Of a stretch of 64,000 nucleotides of DNA, positions 3,901-22,985 are shown in pieces (positions within the stretch are counted from its first letter, which is position 1; each line of letters starts with the position of its first letter). Position numbers and translations under genes: made by a program. Source of the DNA: Calditrichota bacterium (GTDB taxonomy: Bacteria > Caldisericota > Caldisericia > UBA6126). The stretch lies in contig DAIMET010000004.1 in the NCBI GenBank assembly GCA_036725105.1, positions 7,719-71,718 on the forward strand, given 5' to 3'. The notes under the pieces are model-generated. The model did not search any database and had not been told where the DNA came from. It worked only from the letters and a program-made list of their open reading frames with translations.

Positions 3901-4530
3901 ATCATTCAATTAAAGCCACAAAACAATAGCCAGTCTTTGCCTATTCTAGGAATAAATGAGGACTACCAAACCATTTTGCAAAAACTGCAGGATGACATGA
4001 TCCATGCTTTGGTTGTATTAGGCGAAAATCCGATGAAAACTACCGTAATGTCGAAACCAAAACTACTTATAGTTATGGATACACATCTCACTGAAACTGC
4101 CTTACGCGCTGATGTTGTGTTGCCTAGCTGTGCCCCTATGGAGATCTGCGGAACGTATATCAGCACCGACCGCATTATACAATCGTTCCCATCCGTTTTA
4201 CCAAAGGGAATACCCTATGACAATTGGATCATATTACAACAGCTATCTGTTGTTCTTAAGGGCCCTATAAGATTTCATTGCTTAGAAGAAATCGCAGAAG
4301 AAATTAGTGAAAAAATCCTAGGATATCAAAATACACTAACGGTGGGTTCTGATGACTGTTCTTCACAAAACACTCCCGTACTATGCACCCATCAATATAA
4401 TTTTGAGGACGGCATGGCAAGAATGTCTTCAGTGAAGGATGCTCTATTGTTTATACAAAAGGATTCTACTATTTACTCCACGCAAAAAATGAATGAGTTT
4501 TTAGTTGAACACGGACTTGTTCGATACTAG
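961..4530 (+). CDS. Multidomain oxidoreductase: [2Fe-2S] + GltD/NfnB-like FAD/NADPH module + NuoG/HydA-type Fe-S domains + degenerate molybdopterin-oxidoreductase domain (BfuA/NfnA-like)
   Basis: CYDSR..GGCGLCVVE; PCVLACP..GRVCPHPCEEEC; two GxGxxG motifs plus YRR; CILCSLCVRIC and CISCGQCISVCP; CSHCSIGC..LCVRGRFG; no Cys at the Fdh Mo-ligand position. Confidence 0.88.
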   Translation: MSIIKLNIDGIEVEGQKGQTILEVARQNGINIPTLCYDSRIQPYGGCGLCVVEIEGSPKLFRACATEIADNMVIYTNTSRIRSSRKTTLELLLTDHTGDCRPPCVLACPAQTDCQGYVGLIANGEFKEALKLIKEQLPLPASIGRVCPHPCEEECRRQLKDEPISIAWLKRFVADIDLDDPYIPPMQPETFKKVAIVGGGPGGLSAAYFLLLKGHQVTIYDMMPEMGGMLKYGIPEYRLPKMIVDQEVAIIKKMGACLQNNKKLGRDFSLQSLQEEYDAIYLSIGCWNSIDLGIPGENLNRVYGGIHFLANVIQNKPVPIGKRVAVIGGGNTAMDACRTAKRLGAEEVYVLYRRTRAEMPAEEIEIVECEEEGIQFRFLVSPLEVAGSSGNVESIRLQKMELGKPDSSGRRRPVPIEGEEETLEIDSLIVAIGQYVNIEGLDGIELTKRSTIASDENTFSTNIPGIFAGGDAINDNQKIAIQAIADGKIASQVIHGYLLGVDVAYTKPYLVTRDDVHEDEFSHRPKEYRPPMDLLRPEDREDNFLEIVKGYTTEEAIKDAKRCLECGCPDYFECQLIQYSKDYQVNPDDFMGEKHHRDLLDTHPFISRNPDKCILCSLCVRICNDVMGITALGLVDRGFDTTVQPDMSRPLEDTDCISCGQCISVCPTGALQEKLLITKPCPMKTTKTEQICSHCSIGCNTIVETRGNMALRVLPDTESSVDNGLLCVRGRFGYNIHRDEMRLTAPLVRFQDELKEVSWDEAIFYAAKKLESIRFRYGSDRIAMSISDQWSLEDMYVAQKLGQTVLGTPWITNFNTNKSSLDSVFGFDGSLNTLNEVPNTNCILLIGSYTYRDHTIAALKIKNAVEKGATLITINPCATKMDEYAMMKVNPTNSITFLKEIAAAMVNMGCEPKNVQGWDDVLPELKSIEPGKEAIEIAQIYVKAKKAMIVFDQNQLSREGIQWTAYLALISGHIGKPRDGIIQLKPQNNSQSLPILGINEDYQTILQKLQDDMIHALVVLGENPMKTTVMSKPKLLIVMDTHLTETALRADVVLPSCAPMEICGTYISTDRIIQSFPSVLPKGIPYDNWIILQQLSVVLKGPIRFHCLEEIAEEISEKILGYQNTLTVGSDDCSSQNTPVLCTHQYNFEDGMARMSSVKDALLFIQKDSTIYSTQKMNEFLVEHGLVRY

Positions 4531-5381: not shown

Positions 5382-6937
<1,556 letters not shown>

Positions 6938-7035
6938 AAGGAGCTTTTTTCCCGCCTTTTCCACTTCCCAGGCCCGTAGGCCATGTCCATTCCTCCTTCA
7001 GTACAGCAGCACTGCCACACCCGTGTGTGAGCTGC

Positions 7036-7046
7036 ACCTTGAAAAC
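7036..7046 (+). promoter_or_regulatory. BoxA-like element in the 16S-23S spacer (spacer has no tRNA)
   Basis: ACCTTGAAAAC identical to the leader copy; no cloverleaf seen in the ~170-nt spacer. Confidence 0.6.
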
Positions 7047-7107
7047 CAACCAATGTATGATTGATCGAATCTCTAAGCAACGAAGTTTCACGCACGAGTA
7101 TGTGCGA

Positions 7108-10082
<2,975 letters not shown>

Positions 10083-10169
10083 TCGCACTACTCTCGGAAA
10101 CTTCTTTGCTTAGACATTTGATCAACTACATTGGATGGTAAAAAACCTTCTAAAATTTTACGAAATTTT

Positions 10170-10287
<118 letters not shown>

Positions 10288-10448
10288 TTTTTTTATTGGT
10301 GCAGTGTAGACCATACAATCTCTTCTTTCCAATTCTTGCAATCTCAAGCCTCTTTCTTGGTTATTCAATTTTTTTTCAAACTCTTCTTTTATTACCTCCT
10401 CATCACATCCATTTATTCTATTGGAATCTATTCAAATCAGGAGGAATC

Positions 10449-10988
10449 ATGAAAAAGAATCATGATCGAAAAGAAGCGTTTACATTAGTAGAGTTGTTAA
10501 TCACCATTGGGATCATTGTTATTATTGCTGGTGTTGCAGTACCTCAAATTGCAGGGTATTTGAACAGAAGCAAATCCGCTAGAGCAAAGATGGATTTATC
10601 AACTATTTCGACAGCGATTAAATGTTTTTATACAGATTGGGGTCGTTATCCTGCTTCATTGGAAGATCTGTTAGGAACTGACACATCTCTAGATGCCGTA
10701 AACACATCTGATAATTATACCGTAGCAGGATTACCCGGTGGAATAAACTATCTTGGTGTTACAATCCCTGCTGATATTTTTAATCAAGCCAGCTCAGAGA
10801 ATACTTATAAGTACCTTCTATTTACCGGTGACCAAGACTATATCTTGTGGTCGATCGGCCCCAACAAAGAATCAGAAATTACAGAGCAGACAGCAGCATT
10901 ATCAGATGATGCTGTTACGATTACTACAACAGAAGAATTCGACGATATCTATGATTCCAACTGTTCTGTATCCGTTGCAATTTCATAG
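10449..10988 (+). CDS. Type IV pilin / GspG-ComGC-like major pseudopilin
   Basis: ATG 10449 after GAGG; KEA|FTLVELLITIGIIVIIAGVAVP N-methylation motif; SKSARAKMDLSTISTAIKCFYTDWGRYP is GspG-like. Confidence 0.9.
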   Translation: MKKNHDRKEAFTLVELLITIGIIVIIAGVAVPQIAGYLNRSKSARAKMDLSTISTAIKCFYTDWGRYPASLEDLLGTDTSLDAVNTSDNYTVAGLPGGINYLGVTIPADIFNQASSENTYKYLLFTGDQDYILWSIGPNKESEITEQTAALSDDAVTITTTEEFDDIYDSNCSVSVAIS

Positions 10989-11017
10989 CAATCTTTTTAC
11001 CGTAGCATATTGAGAAA

Positions 11018-11500
11018 ATGAACCTCCTTTTCATTTCTAGGAAACCAGGGTTTACTTATTTTGAAACCCTGGTTTCCGTATTCTGTATTCTGATTTTTGT
11101 AACTGGATTTCAAAAATGGATGCTATATTCTGTTTCCCAAAAAACAACTATTCATATTCAACAAAAACTAACTGAAACATCTCACTGTATCACGACGTTG
11201 CTTCAAAATTCCAATACCAGTTGGATTCAGGACGAAACTTTCAATCCTACACCCCTTCATTATCGATTCTTAACGCAGGATGCAATGAGTACAATACCCA
11301 TACCATTGATGAGTGCAAATTCTTTCTTGAAAATTTCTTTACCCACCGATATCACCCAATTGCCCTACAGTCTTATCATATCGAAATCTACTGCAGAATA
11401 CTATCAAACTGAGTACACCCTTTATCATGTAATCGTTTTTGATACTACAAACACACAACATTCCGCCATTTCTACGTTTATCAAGAAAACTGCCACATGA
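11018..11500 (+). CDS. Minor pilin (prepilin-type cleavage motif)
   Basis: KPG|FTYFETLVSVFCILIFV. Confidence 0.75.
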   Translation: MNLLFISRKPGFTYFETLVSVFCILIFVTGFQKWMLYSVSQKTTIHIQQKLTETSHCITTLLQNSNTSWIQDETFNPTPLHYRFLTQDAMSTIPIPLMSANSFLKISLPTDITQLPYSLIISKSTAEYYQTEYTLYHVIVFDTTNTQHSAISTFIKKTAT

Positions 11501-11979
11501 AGTTATTATCAAAGCAGTTAACTTGTTTCAGTACTATTGAAACATTAGTAAGTGTTGCGATATGCAGTATGATTCTTTTTCCTATTGGAGTATGGATTCA
11601 ACATTCTTCTCATCTCTACTACCAACAAACAAAAGAAAACTCTGTCCGTCTAGACGTTTTATTCTTACTCGAAGATATCGAAACCCATTGGATGCAGTTT
11701 TATTATGAGCCAGATGCAATCAGACCCAAAGAGGGAATCACAGAACAGGCTTTGTTCTTTAAAACCACAGATCAAAGGCTTGTACGTTACTATTCAAAGG
11801 GAAATGAAGTTGGTAGAGATATCAATTACAGTACATTTCAGAATCTGACACAAAAGGTTGTGAAGAGATTCAAAGTGACCAGGTGTTATGATGGTCAATA
11901 TGGGCAAATCCAGATTTGTATTGAAGATATTCTTGGAAGAAAGTACAACAAGCTATTATGCTTTCAACTACCTTCTTGA
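11497..11979 (+). CDS. Minor pilin (GspJ/ComGF-like)
   Basis: LTC|FSTIETLVSVAICSMIL; ATGA overlap with the previous gene. Confidence 0.7.
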   Translation: MKLLSKQLTCFSTIETLVSVAICSMILFPIGVWIQHSSHLYYQQTKENSVRLDVLFLLEDIETHWMQFYYEPDAIRPKEGITEQALFFKTTDQRLVRYYSKGNEVGRDINYSTFQNLTQKVVKRFKVTRCYDGQYGQIQICIEDILGRKYNKLLCFQLPS

Positions 11980-12551
11980 TGACAATGAATTCATTATCTA
12001 CGAATCAGAAAAACTTAAAAAATGCTTTTATTCTCCCAATTTCATTTTTTATCATTACATTGCTTTTAGTTGTAGCCATTTACTTTATGCATCAAACCAT
12101 TCGAAATCAGCATATGCTCCATGCTACTGTAAATCAAGTGAAATTGGATCAGGGAAAAGAGATTGGTGAAAAAGTTTTATTGGATCTGTATGCAAACCAG
12201 GGTCGCGAAATATTGAAAAACAGGATATCGCAGGAACCAAAGATTTATGTAAGAAGTAATCCTATTTACCCCGAAGATATGGCAATCGTTTTCTCTTTTA
12301 TAGATGAGACGTCTACAAAGTGTATTGTGCAAATGTCTATTTTCCTCTTAAAATCGGAAGAAAAAGGAATTCTTACACATCCTCTATTGCGAGTTCCTTT
12401 ATATGTGAATGCCTACCGAAAATGCTATGTTTTATCTCATCAATACATCTCTTCCTACTTTTTAACCATGAAGTATACTATTTCAACAGAAGAAGAGACC
12501 GACGGAAATATTCTTAACAAAGAAATTGTGAAGATTTACTACAATGGGTAA
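11958..12551 (+). CDS. Minor pilin-like protein (PilX/ComGG-like)
   Basis: KNA|FILP followed by a hydrophobic helix without E5; position in the pilin cluster. Confidence 0.55.
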   Translation: MLSTTFLMTMNSLSTNQKNLKNAFILPISFFIITLLLVVAIYFMHQTIRNQHMLHATVNQVKLDQGKEIGEKVLLDLYANQGREILKNRISQEPKIYVRSNPIYPEDMAIVFSFIDETSTKCIVQMSIFLLKSEEKGILTHPLLRVPLYVNAYRKCYVLSHQYISSYFLTMKYTISTEEETDGNILNKEIVKIYYNG

Positions 12552-13140
12552 GATTTTATTGTTAGCAATTCTTCTACTTTTCTCAGTTGAAGATATACGA
12601 TTCAAGAGTATTTCAGAGAAATGGTTTTGGGGATTAACAGGATTTGTTATTCTTTCGCTTCTTGTGCCACCTTTACAGATACATCTAGACCAGCATTTAG
12701 TAGTACCTTTGGATCTGAAGAACTTCTTAATCATGCATACGGGTGCTAGTTTTTTTGAAGAGTTTGTGAAAAGTCTTTTAGATGGTTTTTTTTCTTTTCG
12801 CTACTTTCACAGTTTATCTGGTACACCCTGGTTTACTAACATAGTGAACCTTATATCTAGAGCAGGAGTTGGATTCCTGCTATTATACATCCCCTATTTG
12901 ATCACAAGAAAAAAAAGTCTAGGAGAGGGTGATATTTTTTATTTCACACTCATTTCATGTTTGTTTCCAATATCCATCATATGGTTATCGTATTTTTTAG
13001 CTTTTTTTTCAGGTTGTTTCTTGTTTCTCTTTCTTATCATCTTGATTCCTGAAAAAAAACGAAAGAATCTTTGTTCCTACAAGATTCCCTTTATTCCTTT
13101 TCTTTCCCTCGGTTTTGTGATTGGTCTGTTTTTTCAATGA
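12544..13140 (+). CDS. A24 prepilin peptidase (no N-terminal Zn/methylase domain)
   Basis: SVEDIR and LGEGDI catalytic Asp motifs; C-terminal IPFIPFLSLG. Confidence 0.85.
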   Translation: MGKILLLAILLLFSVEDIRFKSISEKWFWGLTGFVILSLLVPPLQIHLDQHLVVPLDLKNFLIMHTGASFFEEFVKSLLDGFFSFRYFHSLSGTPWFTNIVNLISRAGVGFLLLYIPYLITRKKSLGEGDIFYFTLISCLFPISIIWLSYFLAFFSGCFLFLFLIILIPEKKRKNLCSYKIPFIPFLSLGFVIGLFFQ

Positions 13141-13712
13141 AAATCCAAAAAAATCGTCGGTTTCGTGCACACATCCTTTTTGAAATCTTTTTTTGGATGG
13201 CAATGATCATAATTTTAAGCGGTTCTTTTGTTTCACTTTCAAATGAAGTATTACAGCAAAGACAATTAGATTCTTCCATTTGTACCCTCGTAGAAGATCT
13301 TCAGTTGCTTCGAATGAAATCAATAGCTACCCACCAGGACTTACGCATCATGTTTTATCCAACAAAAAACACATATGTATTTGAAACTGAAGAAAATGGT
13401 CTAAATATACCAGGAAAATTTGTACAGAGAGTTTTTCCGAAAAATATCGGCTACCCATATTACTTTGGAGTTTACACTCCTTCTTACGTTGATGAATGGG
13501 GAAATATCTGCTCTGGATCTGTAGAATTTGGTTATAGTGGGTCTCCGTTGCTTCCACGTAAGTTAACCTTTAAACATACGGGAACTCCTTCGTGTGGAGG
13601 TCACATTATTCTCACATCCTATCCGGATTTTCGAAGTAGTGTTGTCATTGTAAAGGTCGCAACGGGCAGAATTAGAGTAGGACGTGTTACTTTTGCCCCA
13701 ATGGAACCATGA
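13137..13712 (+). CDS. Minor pseudopilin (GspH/FimT/ComGD-like)
   Basis: ATG 13137 (ATGA overlap); FRA|HILFEIFFWMAMIIILS; C-terminal VKVATGRIR typical of FimT/GspH. Confidence 0.7.
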   Translation: MKIQKNRRFRAHILFEIFFWMAMIIILSGSFVSLSNEVLQQRQLDSSICTLVEDLQLLRMKSIATHQDLRIMFYPTKNTYVFETEENGLNIPGKFVQRVFPKNIGYPYYFGVYTPSYVDEWGNICSGSVEFGYSGSPLLPRKLTFKHTGTPSCGGHIILTSYPDFRSSVVIVKVATGRIRVGRVTFAPMEP

Positions 13713-13830
13713 CAAAATCGAAAATTCGGAAATTCTTTACCAATTCGTCATTATTTCTCGGAAAAAATCCATATAATTAGTAATACTCATATATCTTTTT
13801 TATAAGGCGACCTTTTTAATGGAGGTTTAT

Positions 13831-14343
13831 ATGACAAAAAGCGGTAAAGTACTTTTTGCGACTATTGTATGCATTGTTTTAGCTGGTTTTGTGTTTTCTT
13901 CTCCGATGTTGCAACTTTTCTACCAAGATGCTGAACCCTTCAAGTTTTTTGGCTATGAATTTGCAGCTGAATTCGATCCCATTAAGATCGCTTCTGTGAA
14001 AGATATTCCGGACGGAACAGGGCATTCCTTTAGCGTAAAACTTGATCTCCCCTTTGCTGGTCCTCAATATGTCCGCCAAGATATTTATGGGATCATAACA
14101 CATATTGACGGCGATTTCCATGCATATAGTGCAGTATGTCCACACCTTGGATGTATTGTAAGATGGGATGAAGACCAAAACCCTGAACAAAGAATATGGT
14201 GTAATTGTCACAGTGGAGCTTTTAATCCATCCACTGGCGATGTAACAGCAGGACCTCCACCAAGAGGATTGCCAGTGTACACGATTTATGTTGAAGGAGA
14301 TGATATTTACCTAGAAAGCATCAAAGAAGAAGGTGCACAATGA
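13831..14343 (+). CDS. Membrane-anchored Rieske [2Fe-2S] protein
   Basis: GGAGGT RBS then ATG 13831; N-terminal TM; CPHLGC and CNCHSGAF boxes; GPPPRGL. Confidence 0.93.
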   Translation: MTKSGKVLFATIVCIVLAGFVFSSPMLQLFYQDAEPFKFFGYEFAAEFDPIKIASVKDIPDGTGHSFSVKLDLPFAGPQYVRQDIYGIITHIDGDFHAYSAVCPHLGCIVRWDEDQNPEQRIWCNCHSGAFNPSTGDVTAGPPPRGLPVYTIYVEGDDIYLESIKEEGAQ

Positions 14344-15347
14344 GAGATATCCAACCAAAAGCAGTATCCTATCTAAACAATCCCTTTTACTATTTGGGAG
14401 GGATCACCTTCATCTTCCTTGTATTCCAGGTTTTATCGGGAACATTTTTGTTTATGAACTTTGTTCCAGCTATAGGCGGAGCTTATAATACACCAATCCC
14501 AGGTGCCTATGGTTCTCTTGTTTATATCACGAACACTCTACCATTTGGCGTATATCTACGAACTTTTCACCGATTTGCAGCCATGGGAATGCTTCTATTT
14601 GCTATTCTTCACTTGATTCGTATGTGGACTACTAACAAAGTGTCTAAACCCAGAAATCTTGGGTGGATCAGTGGTTTAGTGCTAGTATTTTTCGTGGTAG
14701 TGATCATTTTTACTGGTTTTTTATCTTCATACACCCCGCAATTTGAAGCTATGCTCATGAAATGGGCAGAGTTTTTTGATTATGGCCGTCGAGAATACCA
14801 GAATTTGTTGTCTGCAAATTTTGGACTTCATCTCTTACTGCCCATTTTGATTTTGATTGGTCTCATTATTCATTTCAAAAGAATTGCCAGACCAAAAATA
14901 ACACCACCTCTTTCGCTTATTTTATTCATTACTGGGATACTCATTTTATTGACCGCATTGTTTCCCATTCCATTTTTACCCGAAGAGCCTGTTGCATTCG
15001 AAGGAACCATTCCCACTTTTATGCAACAGATGTCAGTGTTGATCATCTTTTTAGGAATTTGCGTCCTCCTTGCCTTTTTACCAATGATTCTTCGACGAAA
15101 GCAGCTTTTTGCGAAAGTCGATCAAATTCGATGTACGGGCTGTCTATATTGTGTCGATGTTTGTCCGAAAAAAGCAATAAAACCCATCACGAAAGGAACC
15201 AGAGTTGTAGCATTCGTTGATGAATCCAAATGCCAGGGATGCGGAATATGCGAAGGTACATGTCGATCTCTTGCAATCCAGATCTACAATGATCCCTCAA
15301 AATCTACTTTAGAGGAGGTTCGAGCAATATGGCTAACAAAGAATTAG
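14340..15347 (+). CDS. Cytochrome b (four His heme ligands, no PEWY) fused to a C-terminal 2x[4Fe-4S] ferredoxin domain
   Basis: H77/H91 and H164/H178 with 14-residue spacing; CTGCLYCVDVCP and CQGCGICEGTC. Confidence 0.9.
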   Translation: MRDIQPKAVSYLNNPFYYLGGITFIFLVFQVLSGTFLFMNFVPAIGGAYNTPIPGAYGSLVYITNTLPFGVYLRTFHRFAAMGMLLFAILHLIRMWTTNKVSKPRNLGWISGLVLVFFVVVIIFTGFLSSYTPQFEAMLMKWAEFFDYGRREYQNLLSANFGLHLLLPILILIGLIIHFKRIARPKITPPLSLILFITGILILLTALFPIPFLPEEPVAFEGTIPTFMQQMSVLIIFLGICVLLAFLPMILRRKQLFAKVDQIRCTGCLYCVDVCPKKAIKPITKGTRVVAFVDESKCQGCGICEGTCRSLAIQIYNDPSKSTLEEVRAIWLTKN

Positions 15348-15724
15348 TATACCTTTTCCCATGCCTCGCAGAAAAAAGAAAAAAACTCATCCAAGAACTC
15401 ACCAAAAAGTACTCTTCGATCAAAGTTGTACCAATAATTTGTGCGGGTCGCTTTAATACTAGTTTAGCTCTAAAACTTATACATGAAGGAGCAAAAGGGG
15501 TGATTGTTTTAGGCTGCGAACCCGGAGATTGTCATTATCGAGAGGGAGCTGTCTTTTCTGAAAGGCGCTTTCTCCTTGCAAAGCATACACTAAAGGCCTT
15601 CGGTCTGGAAGAAGATCGATTTCAGGCATTGTGGCATAAACCTTCGGATGTGAAACATACTATGAAAGAAGTAGAACAGTGCATGAAGCTCTTATCTGAT
15701 CTAGACGAAGAGGGGGCGAAATAA
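15329..15724 (+). CDS. mvhD: MvhD/FlxD-like [2Fe-2S] subunit
   Basis: PC..VPIICAGR..GAKGVIVLGCEPGDCHY MvhD signature. Confidence 0.9.
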   Translation: MANKELVYLFPCLAEKRKKLIQELTKKYSSIKVVPIICAGRFNTSLALKLIHEGAKGVIVLGCEPGDCHYREGAVFSERRFLLAKHTLKAFGLEEDRFQALWHKPSDVKHTMKEVEQCMKLLSDLDEEGAK

Positions 15725-16716
15725 TGAAAACCCAAATTGAAAAAAACATAAAGCAGCTCTTAAACGAAATGTGGAAACCAGGAGACCTGGCTCTAGCATG
15801 GAAAAAAGCTTCTTTGCCTGGACACCGAATTCCTGCTTTCATTACACAAAAAGAAGAGATTCAAGACATCATTTACGATTCTTTTTGTGATCTTTCATTG
15901 GCGAAATATGTCAATTCTTTTAATCGTAAAGAGATTTTACCTCCCACATTTAAAGGAAAAATCCATATTGTTTGCAAACCATGTGATGCAAAATCAGTAA
16001 TGCAAGCATTTGCAGATGAGCAAATTTCTGAAGAAATGATCAATTTAATTGTAGTTGCTTGCGATGGCATCATCGACCTAACCAAAATTGAAAAGGAATG
16101 TGAAAAAGCTATTGAAAGCTATCAAGAAGAAGATTATGTGATTGTTTGCAAAGATATTGATGGAAACGAACATCGCTTTGATAAGAGAGAGTATTGGCTG
16201 AGAAAATGTGCTGATACACGGAACTGCGATTTCCCATTTTATTACGGTTATTACTTTGTTGGTAACGAAAAAGAATACAAAAAGCGTATCAAGCACTACC
16301 GCAGTAATTGGAGAACTTTACCACAGGATACCATGTCACCCAAAGAACTACGAAACATGATTCACCAAGAGTTGCAGCGATGCATACGCTGTAATGCTTG
16401 CCGAAACATCTGTCCAGCCTGTTTCTGTTCTGATCAGTGTATATTTGACAAACCAAAAGAAAACGTGAACCTTCTTGACATCGATACATCCACAGAGAAT
16501 ACAATTTTGTATCACATGATACGTTTTCACCATGTAGCACCAAACTGTACCGGCTGTGGAGAATGCGAAAGAGCATGTCCAAGAAATATCCCATTACATA
16601 TTTTTTATGAGTATTTCAACCGATTAATGGAAGAAGAATTTGGTTACCAACCTGGTAAGACAAACGACGAAAGACAAAAGCTTCTTTCTTACAATCTAGG
16701 CGAAGACTTGGTTTAA
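15724..16716 (+). CDS. FlxC/FdhB(FrhB)-like 4Fe-4S subunit
   Basis: VCKPCD..VVACDG; RCIRCNACRNICPACFC; CTGCGECERACP. Confidence 0.8.
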   Translation: MKTQIEKNIKQLLNEMWKPGDLALAWKKASLPGHRIPAFITQKEEIQDIIYDSFCDLSLAKYVNSFNRKEILPPTFKGKIHIVCKPCDAKSVMQAFADEQISEEMINLIVVACDGIIDLTKIEKECEKAIESYQEEDYVIVCKDIDGNEHRFDKREYWLRKCADTRNCDFPFYYGYYFVGNEKEYKKRIKHYRSNWRTLPQDTMSPKELRNMIHQELQRCIRCNACRNICPACFCSDQCIFDKPKENVNLLDIDTSTENTILYHMIRFHHVAPNCTGCGECERACPRNIPLHIFYEYFNRLMEEEFGYQPGKTNDERQKLLSYNLGEDLV

Positions 16717-16725
16717 GGAGGAATC

Positions 16726-17769
16726 ATGAGAAAGAGATTAAAAATTGATCAATTCAAACCCTTTCTACAGGAATTGCAAAAACAGGCTACTCTGATTGCT
16801 CCTGTAAAAACTGAAACCAATGAGCGTGAATTCATGGTAGTACAAGATAACACCAATGTCGCATTGGAGGGATTTAATCCACTTCGCTCCCCGAAGGAGT
16901 TCATATTTCCACAAATGGAAAAGATGTTTGAGTATCATATCCAAAAAGATGGAAAAGCTACTATTAAAGAATCAATTCAAAAAGAACCACAAATTATCCT
17001 AGGTGTGCGCCCCTGTGATTTACATGCAATATCGTATATGCAAGAGTTTTACTCTTCCACCCACGAAGACCCCTATATCCTTGAAAAATTGGATTCGACG
17101 GTTATCATTGGGTGGGCATGTCAAGACCCTATGAATACATGTTTTTGTACTTCTGTTGGAGATTCCCCTGTAGACACAAAAGGTGCGGACATAATGATGG
17201 CTAAAACAGATCAATTTTATTTAATTGAAGTCCTTACCGCTAAAGGGAAAAAAGTGTTTGAAGCAGTTGAATCCCTTCTAGACGAATCTCTTGCAGAAGA
17301 TGATGAAATATACCCCATGATTCGTCGCAATACAGAATCCAAAATCCGAGAGAAAGTAGATCTTCTTTCCGTAAAGGGACGTATTGGGTCAGTGTATTCG
17401 TCTAGTTTTTGGAAAACGTATAGCGATACCTGCATTGCTTGTGGAAGCTGCACTTTTAACTGTCCAACTTGTACTTGTTTTGACACCTCTGACTCACTGG
17501 ACACTTGCCAAGATGGTTGCCGATATCGCACATGGGATACATGCCAAAATTATGCATTTACATTGCATGCTTCGGGTCACAATCCACGAGCAACTCGATT
17601 ACACCGTCTGCGTCAGCGAGTTATGCATAAATTTCATTATTCGGTAGAACAACTCGGTCTCTTTTCTTGTACTGGGTGTGGACGATGCACTCGATCATGT
17701 CCTGTTCGAATCGATATGGTTTCGATCATTAAAGATATCAAGGAGGCAGTTGATCATGGAGAAAAGTAA
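16726..17769 (+). CDS. FlxB/AsrA-like 4Fe-4S subunit
   Basis: GVRPCD; CFCTSVG; CIACGSCTFNCPTCTC; RLRQRVMHKF; CTGCGRCTRSCP. Confidence 0.87.
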   Translation: MRKRLKIDQFKPFLQELQKQATLIAPVKTETNEREFMVVQDNTNVALEGFNPLRSPKEFIFPQMEKMFEYHIQKDGKATIKESIQKEPQIILGVRPCDLHAISYMQEFYSSTHEDPYILEKLDSTVIIGWACQDPMNTCFCTSVGDSPVDTKGADIMMAKTDQFYLIEVLTAKGKKVFEAVESLLDESLAEDDEIYPMIRRNTESKIREKVDLLSVKGRIGSVYSSSFWKTYSDTCIACGSCTFNCPTCTCFDTSDSLDTCQDGCRYRTWDTCQNYAFTLHASGHNPRATRLHRLRQRVMHKFHYSVEQLGLFSCTGCGRCTRSCPVRIDMVSIIKDIKEAVDHGEK

Positions 17770-18643
17770 AAAAATGACAACTACATCACAAAATGAATAT
17801 CTCCCATTTTATGCCCTTATACGAGAAGTAGGTCAACAAACATCCACAGTAAAGCATTTTTGGGTAGAATTACCCAAAGACAAAATTCCAAAAAAATATG
17901 TTCCTGGACAGTTTTATCAACTCTCCCTTCCTGGTGTTGGAGAAGTACCAATATCCATCTCAGACTATGATCCGAAGGCTAATGCTCTTCTTTTTTGCAT
18001 CGCCAAAACGGGCGTTGTAACTAACAAAATTCATGAACTAAAAGAAGGAGAGTATCTAGGACTTCGTGGTCCCTATGGAAACGGCTTTCCAATGGATACT
18101 TTCCAAGGAAAGAACATTGTGGTCGTTGCAGGTGGAATTGGATTAGTTCCTTTGCGAAGCGTTATTGAAGAGTATTTTCGAAATCCTGACAAATATGGTG
18201 AATTGGAAATTTTGTATGGAGCTAGAAATTCCAATGAAATTGTATACAAAGAAGAAATGAAACAGTGGCGACTGAAGAAAAAAACAACCTGCAAAATAAC
18301 CATTGATAAGCCTGAAAAAGGATGGGATGGAAACACGGGTTTTGTGTGCAATCTTGTAGACCAATCTTATTGCGATTGCAGCGAAGTTCTGTTCCATGGG
18401 AATTCATCCGATCGAAGCAACACCGTAGTGTTGGTTGTAGGTCCACCTGTAATGTTTCAATCTATTTTAGATCAATTGTCCTCTATTCAATTTCCAGATG
18501 ATTCTGTTTTTGTATCCCTAGAGAATCACATGAAATGCGGAATTGGAAAATGCGGTCATTGCAACTGCGGTGGCAAATATGTTTGCCAAGATGGTCCCAT
18601 TTTTTCCTGGAAAGAATTGAAATCCATGGAAAAAGAGTACTAG
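17756..18643 (+). CDS. FlxA/AsrB-like FAD/NAD(P)-binding [2Fe-2S] subunit
   Basis: AGGAGG RBS then ATG 17756; PGQF, GEVPISI, RGPYGNGF, AGGIGLVP, VVGPPVM, MKCGIGKCGHC..CQDGP. Confidence 0.9.
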   Translation: MEKSKKMTTTSQNEYLPFYALIREVGQQTSTVKHFWVELPKDKIPKKYVPGQFYQLSLPGVGEVPISISDYDPKANALLFCIAKTGVVTNKIHELKEGEYLGLRGPYGNGFPMDTFQGKNIVVVAGGIGLVPLRSVIEEYFRNPDKYGELEILYGARNSNEIVYKEEMKQWRLKKKTTCKITIDKPEKGWDGNTGFVCNLVDQSYCDCSEVLFHGNSSDRSNTVVLVVGPPVMFQSILDQLSSIQFPDDSVFVSLENHMKCGIGKCGHCNCGGKYVCQDGPIFSWKELKSMEKEY

Positions 18644-18652
18644 GAGGAAGAT

Positions 18653-19804
18653 ATGTCTGTACAATCGAGCACATGGCAAAAAATAACCTACTGGTTGAAA
18701 AATCGATTTCGCAATATGGATATTTTTGACGAGACGCTGCAACCAAAGCACCCTCGAAATCCTGCTTATTGGATTGGTGGGATGTTATATCTTGGTTTGC
18801 TAATTCAGATATTACTTGGTTCGATATTAGCAATTTACTATATTCCTTCTTTTGAAATGGCTTACCGAAGTGTTGAATCAATCATGCAACTGCAATTGTT
18901 TGGAGTTCCAATTGGACCATGGCTACGTGGTTTTCACCGATATTTAGCAGATGCCATAATTATCCTAGCAATGCTTCGTGTTTTTCGCCTTTATTTTGCT
19001 GCTGATCACAAGAAACCACATGAATTTACATGGTTTTGGGCTGTTTTATTCGTTGTCATCACAACCGTATTTGGTTTCAGCGGATACATACTTCCCCTGG
19101 ATCAACGTGCATATTGGGCCACAACTATTGGAACCACAATGCCCACTTTTGTGGACGAACTACCACTGCTGGGCAATTTACATTTAGGGAACTTTTTACA
19201 GTTTATTGCTCGAGGTTCGGTTGTAATCTGCACGAACACCATTACACGTTTTTACGCTCTTCACTATGTCTTGCCTGTTGGCATTGTTGTGTTAGCAGAG
19301 TCGTATTTCTACTTCTTCCGTAAAAAAAGAGTGAATCTTCCTGCTTTAGGGGTGATACTGCTATTTGCTATTGTGATTGCATGGCAAATTCTCGAACCGG
19401 CTCATTCCTTAGCTCCTGCAGATCCCTCATCCCCTCCTGAGCACATTCTACCTGATTGGTATTTCTTGTTTGTTTACTATTTCCTTAAGATAATGAACTT
19501 TTTATGGGGAATTCTGTTTAATGTCATCTTTTTAGTGTTTGTCATTCTGATGCCATATATTGAAAGGAATCATTTTAGAAAACCATCGAAAAGACCTTTG
19601 TGGAATTCTCTTCTTGTTTTAGGCTATGCACTCTTCATTATTCTTTCATGGAGAGCTGCTGCTTATTCGGAATCAGAAGTGTTGCGCGCTGATATTCCTT
19701 GGATTTTCGGTGCATATATTGTGTTTATTCTTGTATTTGGCTGGTGGCAAAAGAAAGTAGATCAAAATGAAAAAAGAAAAGGCGAGTTGGTTCATCAGAA
19801 ATAG
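18653..19804 (+). CDS. Second cytochrome b (long form) with Qo motif PDWY, lacking both heme bH His ligands
   Basis: H95 and H204 kept; R109 and Y218 at the bH His positions; GYILPLDQRAYWA; P267DWY. Confidence 0.9.
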   Translation: MSVQSSTWQKITYWLKNRFRNMDIFDETLQPKHPRNPAYWIGGMLYLGLLIQILLGSILAIYYIPSFEMAYRSVESIMQLQLFGVPIGPWLRGFHRYLADAIIILAMLRVFRLYFAADHKKPHEFTWFWAVLFVVITTVFGFSGYILPLDQRAYWATTIGTTMPTFVDELPLLGNLHLGNFLQFIARGSVVICTNTITRFYALHYVLPVGIVVLAESYFYFFRKKRVNLPALGVILLFAIVIAWQILEPAHSLAPADPSSPPEHILPDWYFLFVYYFLKIMNFLWGILFNVIFLVFVILMPYIERNHFRKPSKRPLWNSLLVLGYALFIILSWRAAAYSESEVLRADIPWIFGAYIVFILVFGWWQKKVDQNEKRKGELVHQK

Positions 19805-20063
19805 CACATGGTTTTTTTGGGTAGCCCTTGTGCCAGCGGTTGTTCTTGGTAATGTTATTTTTCTTAGAATTCAACTATTGGCTCGTTTCGGTTTCCAAAC
19901 TACCCATTTTATCATGTTGCTATTTAGCTCACTGTTGTTTCTAGCACTTCTCCTTTTTCTTTGTTTTATCATCTACGTGCATGACTCGTTGAATGGAAAT
20001 ATCAAAAGACGATTGTCATGGTTTGATTCCTGGATCCAAAAATGGCATTTGGAGGAAGACTGA
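19767..20063 (+). CDS. Small 2-TM hypothetical protein
   Basis: 98 aa, two hydrophobic helices, overlaps the cytochrome b stop. Confidence 0.6.
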   Translation: MKKEKASWFIRNSTWFFWVALVPAVVLGNVIFLRIQLLARFGFQTTHFIMLLFSSLLFLALLLFLCFIIYVHDSLNGNIKRRLSWFDSWIQKWHLEED

Positions 20064-20064
20064 T

Positions 20065-20277
20065 ATGAAAAAAATTGAAAATATGCTGTCCATTCTGTCG
20101 TATGTATTTCTTGTATGTATTGTAATTTTGCTGGGCTTGTGTTCACACTACCACATTATTAATGACCAAAGAATGGTTGTTATTTGCTCTGGTTTGATAT
20201 TGATTCTTTTTGGTATTGTGTTCACACTAGAAACAAAACTAAAGTGGTTGGAGAGTGAAAAAAGATCATTAAAATGA
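20065..20277 (+). CDS. Small 2-TM hypothetical protein
   Basis: GGAGGA RBS then ATG 20065; 70 aa; ATGA overlap with the next gene. Confidence 0.65.
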   Translation: MKKIENMLSILSYVFLVCIVILLGLCSHYHIINDQRMVVICSGLILILFGIVFTLETKLKWLESEKRSLK

Positions 20278-22985
20278 AGCTACATCGTTTCATAGCTTTT
20301 GTTTTTTTATGTTGCCTGATCACAGGGTCGTCCCTTTCTCTTCCTGCAGTCGAAGGAAAGGATAGTCTTTCGATTGAACCGTCCTCTGTTTCTTTTTCCA
20401 TAACAACGACCCAACGCGATACAAAAGCGATTTTACTCACCAACCAATCATCTGAGTCCATACAATTTTCAGTCGTTAAGCAAGCTACTGAAAAAAGCAG
20501 TTCAACTGAAATATTACCATCCTTTCATGGAGATGCACCACAGGAAGTAGGTTCTCCCTGGGTTACTCCTCAATACAATTTTGCCAGAACGGGTTACAAT
20601 CTTATCGAATCAACGTCACCACCTTTTGAACAAAAATGGCGATCAACCTATACAAAAGCTTTGCTTCCCCCTGTTTTATCGGGTAACAACTTATACTTAC
20701 CCTCCGAAGATGGGAGAATTCATCACCTGCATTGTAGGACCGGTGTCAAAGAAGAAATGTTTCATATGGGCGAAGCTCTTTACTCTGTTCATCTATATAC
20801 GCGTTACCTCATTGTAGCTACTAACACAAATCTTGTCCTATTTGATCGAATTGCCAAACAGGTGATTTGGACTCGACCTTACTTTGTTCCAAGCATGTAC
20901 GGCGTTGCAGCTTGGGAGGGCCTGTTGTTTATAGGGACACAGACTAAACTTATCTGTTTGGATCTTATCACTGGACGAGAGATATGGTACAAGCCAGGAT
21001 TATGTGAATACATCTCAACTGATCAAGGGGTTGTAGCAGCTGTGTTGGATTCTTCAACACTTTTTATTGCGCGCGGACAATCTGGAAATGAGATTGTTTC
21101 GATTTCTACTCAAGAAATTTTTACAGGTCCCGCCGTTTTTACCCAGGACAATTTGTATTACTGTACTACTCAACAAGACCTGAAAAAAAGTCATGTTGTT
21201 CGATTTTCGTTAGACGGAAAAAAGCAGTGGGAATACATACAAGAAAACTATATTCCTTCTTCTCTAGCTGTAGACGATCAACATGTGTATTTCTGTACAA
21301 ATCAGGGAGATGTGGTTGCTCTTGAACGTTTCTCTGGGAAGAAGCAGTGGGAAAAAAACATCCATTCCCCCATCCTGATCCCACCTATCGTAGCGTGGAA
21401 TTCCATTTATATAGGCGGAAACGACGGTGCAATCCATTGTTTTAACCGAAATAATGGTACAGACATTTGGAACTACAAAATGTCTTTTCCTCTCAATTCA
21501 CCTTTTGTTATGGCGCAAGGTTTTTTGTATTTTGCCGACAATACTGGGAATTTTTATGCCTTTTGTCGCATTGGAGAAAATGTTCTTCCCCCTTATGCTC
21601 CTGCACGCGTCAAGGGCTATCCTGGAAATCAAAAATTTGTGTTAAGCTGGGAAATTGAGCAGCCAAAACCAGATTTAGCAGGTTTTCATATTTATCGAAA
21701 GAAAGAATTTGAACGTGATTTTTCATTTATAGACAAAACGGATATTGTCAGTTTTTATGAAGATAGTCCCCTTGAGAATGGAGAGAAAGTCAGCTATATT
21801 GTTCGAGCATTTGATACATATGGCAATGAAAGCACCAGCTCCAATATGGTCACGGGTATACCTTCTCAAGATCCAACACCAACCTGGCTTGATTATGTTC
21901 CGACATCCGGTAGTATTAAGCCAAACGATTCGGTCATCCTTACGGTTAAGGTTGATGGCTCTAAGGTTCCCCCTGGTGAATATCATGCTGAACTTGTACT
22001 ACTTTGCTCCCATCTTCCACCCAATGAGAATACAATTCATATTCCTGTATCCATGAAGACATCAAAAGGAGATTCTTCTATTCTTCAGCCTCCTTCTCTT
22101 GAGACAATTACAAGTTCTGACACCAGAGCGTTGCTGAAGTGGAGGAAGTATCCTGCAATATGGTCCATATATGTGTATCGCTCCACGGTGTCTCAAGATG
22201 AAATGGTGCGAATTGCTTCCGTAAGAGGAACTGAAGAGCAATATATTGACGATACCGTCCAAAATGGTGTAATGTATTATTATTCCCTAAAAGCAGTATC
22301 TGAAGATGGTTTATTGAGTGACTTTTCCAACGAGCTTTCTATTGTTCCTATGCCAGCTTCACTCCAAATTTTAAAAGAGAATAGTATTACTGTTTTTCAT
22401 CCAGTTTTTGATATACAGGGGAAAGCAGACCCGAAAGCCAAACTCACTGTACAAGGCCATCCCATTGAGTTAAAAGCTGATGGAACTTTTACCACTCCTC
22501 TCGGAGTACCAGTTGGAATCAGCACTCTTTTCTTCCAGGCTATTGCAACAGATCAGACTGTACAAGAAAAAAAGATAGAAGTGAATTGCATCTCTGAATC
22601 CTATACCATCAAAATGCAGATTCAAAATCCAAATGTAACTGTGAATGATCTTCCATGGCCCTGGGCATTAGAAGCACCCCCTATACTGGAATCTCAAAGA
22701 ACCTTTGTGCCCTTGCGCTTTATTAGTGAAATTGTAGGGGGGTCTGTTCTGTGGGATTCGGAAGAAAAAAGAATTCAAGTTTTGTATAAACAAAACGAAG
22801 TAGTATTATGGATAGGGAAAAGAGAAATTTTAGTCAATGGCAAAAAAGAAAAAATTGATGCTCCGCCATTCATTTTGAACGGTCGCACACTTGTACCATT
22901 GCGATTTGTTACCGAGCCATTGGGAGCAAAAATTGAGTGGAAAGCTGAAACTCGTACAATTTTACTTTCTTTCCATTTTACTTAA
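20274..22985 (+). CDS. Secreted PQQ-like beta-propeller + fibronectin III + copper amine oxidase N-terminal (stalk) domain protein
   Basis: Signal peptide; repeated G..W propeller motifs; two FN3-like GFHIYR/IYVYR segments; C-terminal RTFVPLRFISE..RTLVPLRFVTEPLGAKIEW. Confidence 0.85.
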   Translation: MKLHRFIAFVFLCCLITGSSLSLPAVEGKDSLSIEPSSVSFSITTTQRDTKAILLTNQSSESIQFSVVKQATEKSSSTEILPSFHGDAPQEVGSPWVTPQYNFARTGYNLIESTSPPFEQKWRSTYTKALLPPVLSGNNLYLPSEDGRIHHLHCRTGVKEEMFHMGEALYSVHLYTRYLIVATNTNLVLFDRIAKQVIWTRPYFVPSMYGVAAWEGLLFIGTQTKLICLDLITGREIWYKPGLCEYISTDQGVVAAVLDSSTLFIARGQSGNEIVSISTQEIFTGPAVFTQDNLYYCTTQQDLKKSHVVRFSLDGKKQWEYIQENYIPSSLAVDDQHVYFCTNQGDVVALERFSGKKQWEKNIHSPILIPPIVAWNSIYIGGNDGAIHCFNRNNGTDIWNYKMSFPLNSPFVMAQGFLYFADNTGNFYAFCRIGENVLPPYAPARVKGYPGNQKFVLSWEIEQPKPDLAGFHIYRKKEFERDFSFIDKTDIVSFYEDSPLENGEKVSYIVRAFDTYGNESTSSNMVTGIPSQDPTPTWLDYVPTSGSIKPNDSVILTVKVDGSKVPPGEYHAELVLLCSHLPPNENTIHIPVSMKTSKGDSSILQPPSLETITSSDTRALLKWRKYPAIWSIYVYRSTVSQDEMVRIASVRGTEEQYIDDTVQNGVMYYYSLKAVSEDGLLSDFSNELSIVPMPASLQILKENSITVFHPVFDIQGKADPKAKLTVQGHPIELKADGTFTTPLGVPVGISTLFFQAIATDQTVQEKKIEVNCISESYTIKMQIQNPNVTVNDLPWPWALEAPPILESQRTFVPLRFISEIVGGSVLWDSEEKRIQVLYKQNEVVLWIGKREILVNGKKEKIDAPPFILNGRTLVPLRFVTEPLGAKIEWKAETRTILLSFHFT

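Follow-up and report, generated by a model that had tools for sequence, protein, structure and literature searches.

A cytochrome b with an HdrA-like ferredoxin tail, encoded ahead of MvhD and a Flx-like gene set in Caldisericota

How a cytochrome b came to end in a ferredoxin domain, and what that domain may be wired to, are the questions raised by a tightly packed operon of an uncultured Caldisericota bacterium (38.8% G+C). The operon lies in the 64,000-nucleotide stretch of DNA analysed here, referred to as the window (contig DAIMET010000004.1 of assembly GCA_036725105.1, positions 7,719 to 71,718), and spans window positions 13819 to about 20277 of the + strand, on which all of its genes are encoded: a Rieske protein, a cytochrome b–ferredoxin (cyt b–Fd) fusion, MvhD, three Flx-like proteins, a second cytochrome b and two small open reading frames (ORFs). 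An initial annotation had proposed that the ferredoxin tail and MvhD reproduce the interface between the C terminus of HdrA and MvhD, in a module made by grafting the 3′ end of an hdrA–mvhD–flx operon onto a cytochrome b gene. Our own reading, which we regard as quite probable, is that the tail, mvhD and the three following genes were inherited as a block from an operon of the hdr(CB)A–mvhD–flxCBA type, with a cytochrome b replacing the HdrA body, and that their products would form a cytoplasmic wire to NAD(P)(H).

The fusion protein (335 aa, 14340..15347) matches Pfam Cytochrome_B over residues 13–128 and Fer4-type dicluster families over residues 257–310. Its cytochrome b domain (residues 1–253, 14340..15098; Cytochrome_B 61.7 bits) is composed of six transmembrane (TM) helices. 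Its only four histidines form two pairs, H77/H91 (helix 2) and H164/H178 (helix 4), both spaced as HX13H, which together give the canonical two-b-heme ligand pattern of cytochrome b. The AlphaFold2 (AF2) model of the full-length protein (predicted local distance difference test score (pLDDT) of 80.7, ~77–87 within the ferredoxin domain, and predicted template modelling score of 0.80) places helices at residues 15–39, 70–97, 106–130, 150–181, 191–207 and 227–250 and a terminal helix at residues 322–334, in agreement with the hydropathy profile, which likewise gives six TM helices, then the ferredoxin fold, then the terminal helix. Best matches of this model in Foldseek are QcrB and cytochrome b6 chains (E ~1e-6, 26–29% identity to b6). 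Helices C and D are joined by a short, divergent loop, and neither a PEWY-type motif nor a C-terminal (subunit IV-like) domain is found in the fusion. Basic loops follow helices 2, 4 and 6; by the positive-inside rule and what is known of cytochrome b topology, the tail would therefore lie on the cytoplasmic face, where the H91/H178 haem is also located. The fusion does not qualify as an HdrA: upstream of the tail stands a cytochrome b instead of the FAD and N-terminal FeS domains, only the tail is of HdrA type, and a search of the 64-kb window for an HdrA body or for hdrBC found neither.

Occupying the remainder of the chain is the tail itself (residues 254–335, 15099..15347), which ends in KVDQIRCTGCLYCVDVCPKKAIKPITKGTRVVAFVDESKCQGCGICEGTCRSLAIQIYNDPSKSTLEEVRAIWLTKN and which sequence, profile and model comparisons assign to the type of 2×[4Fe–4S] ferredoxin domain found at the C terminus of HdrA. 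Two CxxCxxCxxxC motifs, the first formed by C265, C268, C271 and C275 (15132–15164) and the second by C298, C301, C304 and C308 (15231–15263), are invariant in 24 sequences, and a trailing helix follows at about residues 322–334 (15303–15341). When the tail is compared with the PDB as a single sequence, its best single stretch is the C-terminal domain of HdrA (9sfi_A residues 575–634, 33.2 bits over 60 ungapped residues), with a further match to 5odc_A residues 574–633; the best single repeat of the FwdF/FmdF polyferredoxins reaches at most 22.4 bits. Matches of a 21-sequence tail profile to HdrA extend to profile positions 77–81 and include the trailing helix. At the other end, similarity to HdrA begins directly after TM helix 6, at (V/F)AKVDQxRCxGC, as can be seen by setting the junction in the window (QLFAKVDQIRCTGC) beside the corresponding stretch of HdrA from an hdr–flx locus, L013 (PIVAKVDQTRCIGC). 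The trailing helix reads IQIYNDPSKSTLEEVRAIWL in the window and IQLxGSxDxxLLEEVxxxWL as the family consensus, the form in HdrA being L.GF.D..I..E[VI]..A.

The tail profile was then run on 1.84 billion representative proteins, with every match rescored domain by domain. The best match outside the family (P0164, 83 bits) is a second Caldisericota fusion. We then inspected all 32 other non-family proteins in which one domain scores 63.9 bits or more, a list that is exhaustive down to this value, as no protein can score lower as a whole than its best domain does. In 31 of the 32 the domain ends in a helix like that of HdrA, usually of the form G[F/Y]x[D/N]xx[ILVM]..E[VI] (28 caught by a fixed pattern and three more by eye; the exception is P0254), at least 10 run upstream into HdrA flavoprotein sequence, and 4 or 5 have an HdrC-like N terminus. 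Among the representative proteins, no polyferredoxin, PorD, NuoI or PsaC domain attains 63.9 bits with this profile. In the reverse comparison, a hidden Markov model (HMM) built from 60 HdrA C-termini of Clostridial hdr–flx loci, which were never selected with the tail, gives the fusions 35.7–48.6 bits over model positions 6–86 of 88, the most tail-like polyferredoxin domains 14–33 bits and the other ferredoxin domains of the window at most 16 bits. The initial annotation had named a phylogeny or a profile search as a way to tell an HdrA-type domain from a free ferredoxin, and on that comparison the tail groups, per domain, with HdrA C-termini and not with polyferredoxins, PorD, NuoI or PsaC. 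The polyferredoxins FwdF, FmdF and MvhB were considered as nearest kin and set aside: their lead in whole-protein scores is the sum of many repeats and is gone on per-domain rescoring.

Directly after the tail comes mvhD (131 aa, 15329..15724), in another frame. The 19-nt overlap between the two genes that had been annotated is exact (15329..15347), as is the peptide quoted for the fused domain. Comparable overlaps occur in homologous operons (22 nt in L002, 19 nt in L020 and 13 nt in L017), and in L011 and L035 the hdrA and mvhD genes share 10 nt. The overlap suggests translational coupling. A ribosome-binding site read from the sequence, the Shine–Dalgarno heptamer GAGGAGG (15312..15318), is located 10 nt 5′ of the mvhD ATG, inside the codons of the conserved L-E-E-V of the tail helix; reading the 19-nt overlap by eye, we found in it no −1 slippery heptamer that could yield a fused Fd–MvhD product.

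The MvhD of the window is a true member of the FlpD family with a derived N terminus, as judged from its family match (PF02662 FlpD, 80.5 bits against a cut-off of 22.3) and its alignment. In the PDB it matches MvhD chains at 1e-16 to 1e-8 (8rvu_F 1.9e-16, 5odc_D 3.4e-15), and on the NCBIfam model HdrA2 (NF040770, 777 positions) the tail aligns with positions 568–640 and MvhD with positions 675–775. Four of the five conserved cysteines are retained in the alignment, C12, C38, C63 and C68, which are presumed to be the [2Fe–2S] ligands; the missing one, Cys16, is not a cluster ligand (PMC13580544). Where other MvhDs begin with CNWCSYAGAD, the window protein is reduced to FPCL--AEKRK, so that the NWCSYAGAD segment and with it the second cysteine (Cys16) are gone, and His68 is replaced (GCHxGDCHY to GCEPGDCHY). 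Retention of the four cysteines together with loss of Cys16 and His68 is seen in all MvhDs associated with a cytochrome b, whether separate or fused. In the literature, Cys16 and His68 are placed close to the Cys202/Cys205 pair of HdrA and the flavin, with His68 near a ligand held by Cys202/205 (PMC13580544). Losses of this kind would be expected if the flavoprotein partner vanished while the partner on the ferredoxin side remained; with Cys16 and His68 gone, no more than the side of MvhD that faces the ferredoxin can be reproduced here.

That HdrA's C-terminal 2×[4Fe–4S] domain pairs with MvhD, as the initial annotation had it, agrees with the literature (PMC9012536, PMC13580544, PMC13518236): in Mvh–Hdr, electrons from the hydrogenase travel via MvhD and HdrA's C-terminal ferredoxin domain (PMC9012536), and HdrA's domains at the N and C termini move together with MvhD as one rigid mobile arm (PMC13580544, PMC13518236). 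Its second premise, that HdrA–MvhD fusions exist, is equally sound, such fusions being known (PMC5296606) and present among our matches (P0221 and P0223). From gene colinearity and from the natural cyt b–Fd–MvhD fusions described below, we infer that the tail docks MvhD as the C-terminal domain of HdrA does.

The gene order beyond mvhD carries the argument further. The stop codon of mvhD shares one base with the ATG of the next gene (TAATG), which encodes a 330-aa FeS protein (Fer4_8; 15724..16716), FlxC-like by position, whose homologues lie directly 3′ of mvhD in hdr operons. This is followed by a 347-aa FeS protein related to HydB, ShyB and AsrA (16726..17769; Fer4_22 104.9 bits; NCBIfam ShyB 3e-57 and AsrA 3e-45, both below their cut-offs), which is FlxB-like, and by a FlxA-like FAD/NAD(P)-binding protein with a C-terminal [2Fe–2S] site, related to HydG and AsrB (~17756..18643; Pfam NAD_binding_1 and DHODB_Fe-S_bind; NCBIfam PRK08345 2e-73 and AsrB 4e-64). 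The start of this last gene is uncertain, the ORF being open from 17678, and the ATG at 17756 agrees with the lengths of the homologues in L002, L017 and L020.

Orthologues of the 330-aa protein are found in the same Caldisericota operon down to 39% identity, after which there is a gap to homologues at 28–34%. The nearest of these homologues outside Caldisericota served as outgroup, and all five distinct loci (L011/12, L013/14, L015/16, L034 and L035) share a single hdr gene order: a CCG/HdrB and an HdrC-like protein are followed by HdrA, FlpD, the counterpart of the 330-aa protein, one protein with Fer4_22 and one with NAD_binding_1 plus DHODB, which we read as hdrB/C–hdrA–mvhD–330–345–279. 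This type of hdr–flx operon has at least 551 relatives, chiefly in Clostridia (for example, Oscillospiraceae, Lachnospiraceae and Blautia). From the tail onwards the window is colinear with operons of the hdrA–mvhD–flxCBA type, its gene boundary coincides with their hdrA|mvhD boundary, and the cytochrome b stands in place of the HdrA flavoprotein body. By Pfam and NCBIfam, all parts of a Flx-type module are co-encoded here, namely an FAD/NAD(P) and [2Fe–2S] subunit, two FeS subunits and an MvhD-like subunit; the link to HdrABC is absent, as no hdrA, hdrB or hdrC is found in the operon or in its homologous operons. On these grounds the genes encode a Flx-like module with the right parts in the right order that is not attached to HdrABC and is predicted to act on NAD(P)H.

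The arrangement is neither a chance nor an assembly feature, because it recurs in 24 protein clusters (45–100% identity) that all combine the fusion with an overlapping mvhD, in seven Caldisericota metagenome-assembled genomes (MAGs) of the GTDB species set and in a deeper lineage. That lineage, of Caldisericales (P0164; loci L017–L019 and L022–L025), has the same seven genes, with a fusion protein 34% identical to that of the window, a second cytochrome b of 490 aa, and groES/groEL upstream and dprA downstream of the operon. Its operon turned up in 96 blocks of the contig collection, which makes the organism an abundant one in the habitats sampled. All eight cluster cysteines and the four histidines are invariant across the family and the P0164 lineage.

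Outside Caldisericota, a six-TM N-domain of cytochrome b, a 2×[4Fe–4S] ferredoxin and MvhD/FlpD are joined in single chains of ~520 aa in Gemmatimonadota (P0025 and P0297–P0415). The search that detected them returned 2,758 matches in total, plain cytochromes b included; the 119 other matches listed all share the three-domain composition, and every named one is from Gemmatimonadota. Fifteen MAG loci (L116–L130) carry the triple fusion, which is found mostly in soil MAGs of Gemmatimonadota. In two further loci examined (L001 4074–5654 and L033 7001–8599), it is divergent from an operon encoding Rrf2, a protein of 52/57 aa, one of 190–207 aa, COX1 and SCO1, and is followed by a ~180-aa protein without a Pfam match; no Rieske or Flx genes are found near it in these two loci. 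Database labels of the triple fusions read only ‘cytochrome b N-terminal domain-containing protein’ or ‘hydrogenase iron-sulfur subunit’. A cyt b–Fd–MvhD-like fusion with the same four-cysteine MvhD pattern also occurs in a Nitrospinota MAG (L026, ~5990–7745), with an extra C-terminal extension and an ORF that runs past the end of the contig. Judged by their domain composition, these single chains constitute Rosetta-stone evidence that the tail and MvhD act together. No cultured organism with either form appeared in scans of GTDB, which detect fairly close relatives only. In another setting, an HdrC-like N terminus (CxxCxxCYxxCPQ) is joined to an HdrA-type ferredoxin with a trailing helix (P0198, P0213, P0229, P0261 and P0276); P0276 continues into an MvhD domain, and P0229 has ~160 extra N-terminal residues. 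To judge from such domain combinations, the Fd(–MvhD) unit seems to be a reusable module.

How the module originated can now be considered. Of the proposed graft of an hdrA–mvhD–flx 3′ end onto a cytochrome b gene, the HdrA-type tail and the five of five colinear loci support the source, but the graft need not have happened once and locally. The cytochrome b part of the fusion protein scores 63 bits against the Gemmatimonadota triple fusions, 44 bits against the second cytochrome b of its own operon and 37–39 bits against plain cytochromes b, which suggests one origin for the cytochrome b–Fd proteins; because it is nearer to the triple fusions than to its operon neighbour, the cytochrome b–Fd junction may predate Caldisericota. 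Taken further, these scores, the identical layout of six TM helices plus ferredoxin, and the loss of NWCSYAGAD and the second cysteine common to all cytochrome-b-associated MvhDs would fit an alternative in which the tail did come from HdrA, but within an older cyt b–Fd(–MvhD) module shared with Gemmatimonadota and Nitrospinota, the Flx genes having been lost there or acquired stepwise in Caldisericota, through another recombination located at mvhD or beyond it. We consider this somewhat unlikely. The window MvhD is closer to the MvhDs of hdr–flx operons (52–63 bits, 25–31% identity) than to the MvhD domain of Gemmatimonadota (~35 bits, ~20% identity), and the tail profile gives HdrA C-termini 43–77 bits against 37–42 bits for the Gemmatimonadota ferredoxin domain. 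The shared losses in MvhD could be convergent, following the departure of the HdrA flavin partner, and the order mvhD–330–347–FAD/NAD is exactly that of hdr–flx operons, for which one block transfer is the simplest account. A specific donor lineage was also sought for the tail and none can be named, as HdrA ends from hdr–flx operons are no closer to it than other HdrA ends.

On our reading, the tail would sit on the cytoplasmic face next to the N-side heme (H91/H178), where it would dock MvhD. Provided that the predicted cofactor sites are occupied, the wire would run from heme bN through the 2×[4Fe–4S] tail to the [2Fe–2S] cluster of MvhD, on to the FeS clusters of the 330- and 347-aa proteins and the [2Fe–2S]/FAD subunit, and finally to NAD(P)(H), with electrons moving one way or the other. 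Alternatively, the tail could be a docking or exchange site for a soluble ferredoxin or another partner, with MvhD and the Flx-like proteins forming a separate soluble enzyme. The Gemmatimonadota and Nitrospinota fusions, which have no Flx-like genes nearby, agree with this in so far as cyt b–Fd–MvhD can serve other partners, but the seven genes, overlapping or abutting, have kept their order across two Caldisericota lineages whose fusions are only 34% identical, MvhD is fused to the tail in other phyla, and the same four proteins follow HdrA in Hdr–Flx operons; this alternative is very unlikely.

Several observations weigh against an HdrA origin of the tail. The ferredoxin domain is short. 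An AF2 model of the tail alone is of low confidence (pLDDT 70), and although five HdrA chains head its Foldseek list at 43–44% identity, the E-values are weak (0.02–0.05). On NCBIfam the tail gives HdrA2 only a slight margin over PorD (39.1 against 38.6 bits). The LEEV motif is doubly constrained by the ribosome-binding site within its codons, so that part of its conservation may be at the nucleotide level, and the HdrA C-termini of the sampled hdr–flx operons (43–65 bits) are not nearer to the tail than other HdrA C-termini. The corresponding alternative, a generic dicluster ferredoxin fused to cytochrome b independently of HdrA, with mvhD and flx recruited separately and the resemblance convergent, can appeal to the shortness and promiscuity of such domains, to the polyferredoxins at the head of whole-protein rankings and to the near-equal PorD score, but is hardly tenable given that the polyferredoxins drop out on per-domain rescoring, that the tail shares with HdrA the trailing helix and the pre-domain ‘VAKVDxxxC’ segment, that the independent HdrA C-terminal HMM favours the fusion tails and that the downstream order is that of hdrA operons in five of five loci.

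At the membrane end of the proposed wire, the fusion is co-encoded with the partners of a Rieske/cytochrome b complex. First in the operon, as also in L002, L017 and L020, is the Rieske [2Fe–2S] protein (174 aa, 13819..14343), which is anchored in the membrane by its N terminus and carries both CPHLGC and CNCHSGAF (Pfam Rieske 44.7 bits); NCBIfam families of b6f/bc1 Rieske proteins match it with scores under their cut-offs. The second cytochrome b (383 aa, 18653..19804; Cytochrome_B 112.7 bits, Cytochrom_B_C 50.8 bits) is full-length and, with its PDWY motif, is likely to carry the quinol-oxidising site, so that the CxHxGC…CxCH motifs of a Rieske protein and a PEWY-type motif of its cytochrome b are both present. 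Following it are two small hydrophobic ORFs (98 and 94 aa, 19767..20277), whose membership of the complex is uncertain; Pfam returns nothing for the ORF at 19993–20277 and, for that at 19767–20063, only a sub-threshold match to AI-2E_transport (17.2 bits, cut-off 34.3). Pairs of small ORFs also trail the second cytochrome b in L002 (105 and 67 aa) and L017 (85 and 85 aa).

The truncated cytochrome b has neither a PEWY-type loop nor a C-terminal domain, and its gene shares the operon with those of a Rieske protein and of another cytochrome b that is complete; it therefore probably represents the low-potential branch of the Rieske/cytochrome b complex, and could serve as its exit or its entry. 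As an exit, quinol would be oxidised at the Qo site and the low-potential electron passed through the truncated cytochrome b to NAD(P)+. This direction is the one we slightly prefer, tentatively and at somewhat short of an even chance, because conservation of the operon extends to the Rieske protein and to a Qo-competent cytochrome b, and only quinol oxidation calls for a Rieske protein. The reverse direction, in which NAD(P)H would feed the b hemes and the quinone pool, is a real possibility that we hold to be rather less probable. Two features of the operon tell against flow towards NAD(P)+. Box II of the Rieske protein (14190–14215) reads CNCHSGAF and is without the Ser and Tyr of bc1/b6f Rieske proteins, residues that in those proteins hydrogen-bond to the cluster and raise its potential, which suggests a low-potential Rieske centre. 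No c-type haem motif (CxxCH) occurs in any ORF from 13819 to 22985, and the operon encodes no c-type acceptor (cytochrome c1 or f) or other acceptor for the Rieske protein, so that bifurcation would lack its high-potential branch. Bolder still is the proposal of a two-cytochrome-b complex in which the Qo electron would pass through the b hemes of the truncated subunit and the HdrA-derived Fd/MvhD/Flx chain to NAD(P)+, and in which cyt b–Fd–MvhD would be a widespread anchor to the quinone pool; taken as a whole, this is doubtful.

Among known systems, the closest counterpart of the tail and MvhD is the C-terminal domain of HdrA with MvhD in MvhAGD–HdrABC and Fdh–Hdr (PDB 5ODC, 7BKB, 9SFI and 8RVU), in which the cysteine spacing, the trailing helix and an MvhD encoded next are the same. 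Here, however, a cytochrome b replaces the thioredoxin-reductase-like FAD domain, there is no HdrB, HdrC or bifurcating flavin, and MvhD is without Cys16 and His68. In HdrA–MvhD fusions (HdrA2 of Methanosarcina, NF040770; P0221 and P0223), the order Fd–helix–MvhD is also the same; the window has this layout split between two genes and its Gemmatimonadota relatives have it in one chain, in both cases with a membrane cytochrome b instead of a flavoprotein. In Hdr–Flx clusters, hdrA is likewise followed by MvhD/FlxD, a pair of FeS proteins and an FAD/NAD protein, in this order, and the 330-aa protein has homologues there at 28–34% identity, but HdrABC is lacking from the window and the module is joined to a Rieske/cytochrome b operon instead. 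Hdr–Flx is listed in PMC5861303 as FlxABCD–HdrABC NADH dehydrogenase/heterodisulfide reductase (Ramos et al. 2015), and equivalence to the Desulfovibrio Flx proteins was judged by domain content and context.

In how the window complex would work, the closest system is that of the anammox Rieske/cytochrome b complexes Kuste4569–4574 and Kustd1480–1485, which have an NAD(P) oxidoreductase subunit and for which a low-potential electron route from heme bN has been proposed (PMC12954380). Both have a cytoplasmic FeS–FAD–NAD(P) module, formed by a single FeS flavoprotein in the anammox complexes and by an HdrA-type ferredoxin, MvhD and three Flx-like proteins here. The window also differs in having no multihaem c-type cytochromes and in an extra, truncated cytochrome b that carries the link covalently. 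Membrane b-type cytochromes that join the quinone pool to HdrA/MvhD-like or HdrD FeS proteins are found in QmoABC and HdrED; QmoB is HdrA-like with an MvhD-like end, QmoC is a cytochrome b fused to an FeS domain, and the anchors of both systems are NarI/HdrE-type cytochromes b with an HdrC-like FeS domain. In the window, by comparison, the ferredoxin domain is of HdrA type and the cytochrome b that serves as anchor is of the bc1/b6 type (PF00033). We found no description of a cytochrome b–ferredoxin–MvhD protein or of this Caldisericota operon in the searched literature, outside which most subscription journals lie.

The locus looks like a plain instance of modular evolution in energy metabolism: what serves a soluble, flavin-based bifurcating enzyme as its electron-input arm, the C-terminal domain of HdrA with MvhD and an NAD(P)H module, has apparently been transferred whole to a bc-type cytochrome b. 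It provides a second system, one without c-type cytochromes, for testing electron exchange between Rieske/cytochrome b complexes and NAD(P)(H), which in the anammox case is only proposed (PMC12954380). It indicates that MvhD can partner a membrane protein, a point that bears on Sporomusa ovata, in which HdrCBA–MetVF seems to be linked to the membrane through MvhD and the membrane partner is unknown (PMC9430772). It also brings to light a large, functionally unnamed cyt b–Fd–MvhD family in soil Gemmatimonadota, beside a haem-copper oxidase operon. Should the two-cytochrome-b proposal hold, the complex would be a second, independently evolved quinol-driven generator of NAD(P)H beside the one proposed for anammox, and an undescribed cyt b–Fd–MvhD anchor, present as single chains in many Gemmatimonadota, would plug MvhD-dependent soluble redox modules into the quinone pool.

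Immediately 5′ of the Rieske gene are six small genes (10437–13712), the first encoding a protein with an N-terminal methylation motif and a T2SSG pilin domain and most of the others proteins with hydrophobic N termini. In L002 and L020 (lineages 47–51% identical), too, the operon comes after a comparable cluster of small genes, the first of them for an N_methyl-motif protein; in the Caldisericales lineage it does not. On the other side (20274–22985) is a 903-aa secreted-looking protein with PQQ-like β-propeller and copper amine oxidase N-terminal domains and without a haem-c motif, which is kept downstream of the operon in L002 and L020; dnaN is next. Directly 5′ of the pilin-like genes is a complete rRNA operon (5382–10287; 16S 5382–6935, 23S 7110–10081 and 5S 10171–10287), which would permit exact placement of the organism. 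Near the start of the window, a NuoF-like protein (48–944, ORF from 48 and possibly cut at the window start) and a 1189-aa fusion of [2Fe–2S], GltD/NfnB-like pyridine-nucleotide oxidoreductase and NuoG-like FeS domains with a molybdopterin oxidoreductase (961–4530) together resemble an enzyme of the formate dehydrogenase type that has an NAD(P) module of its own.

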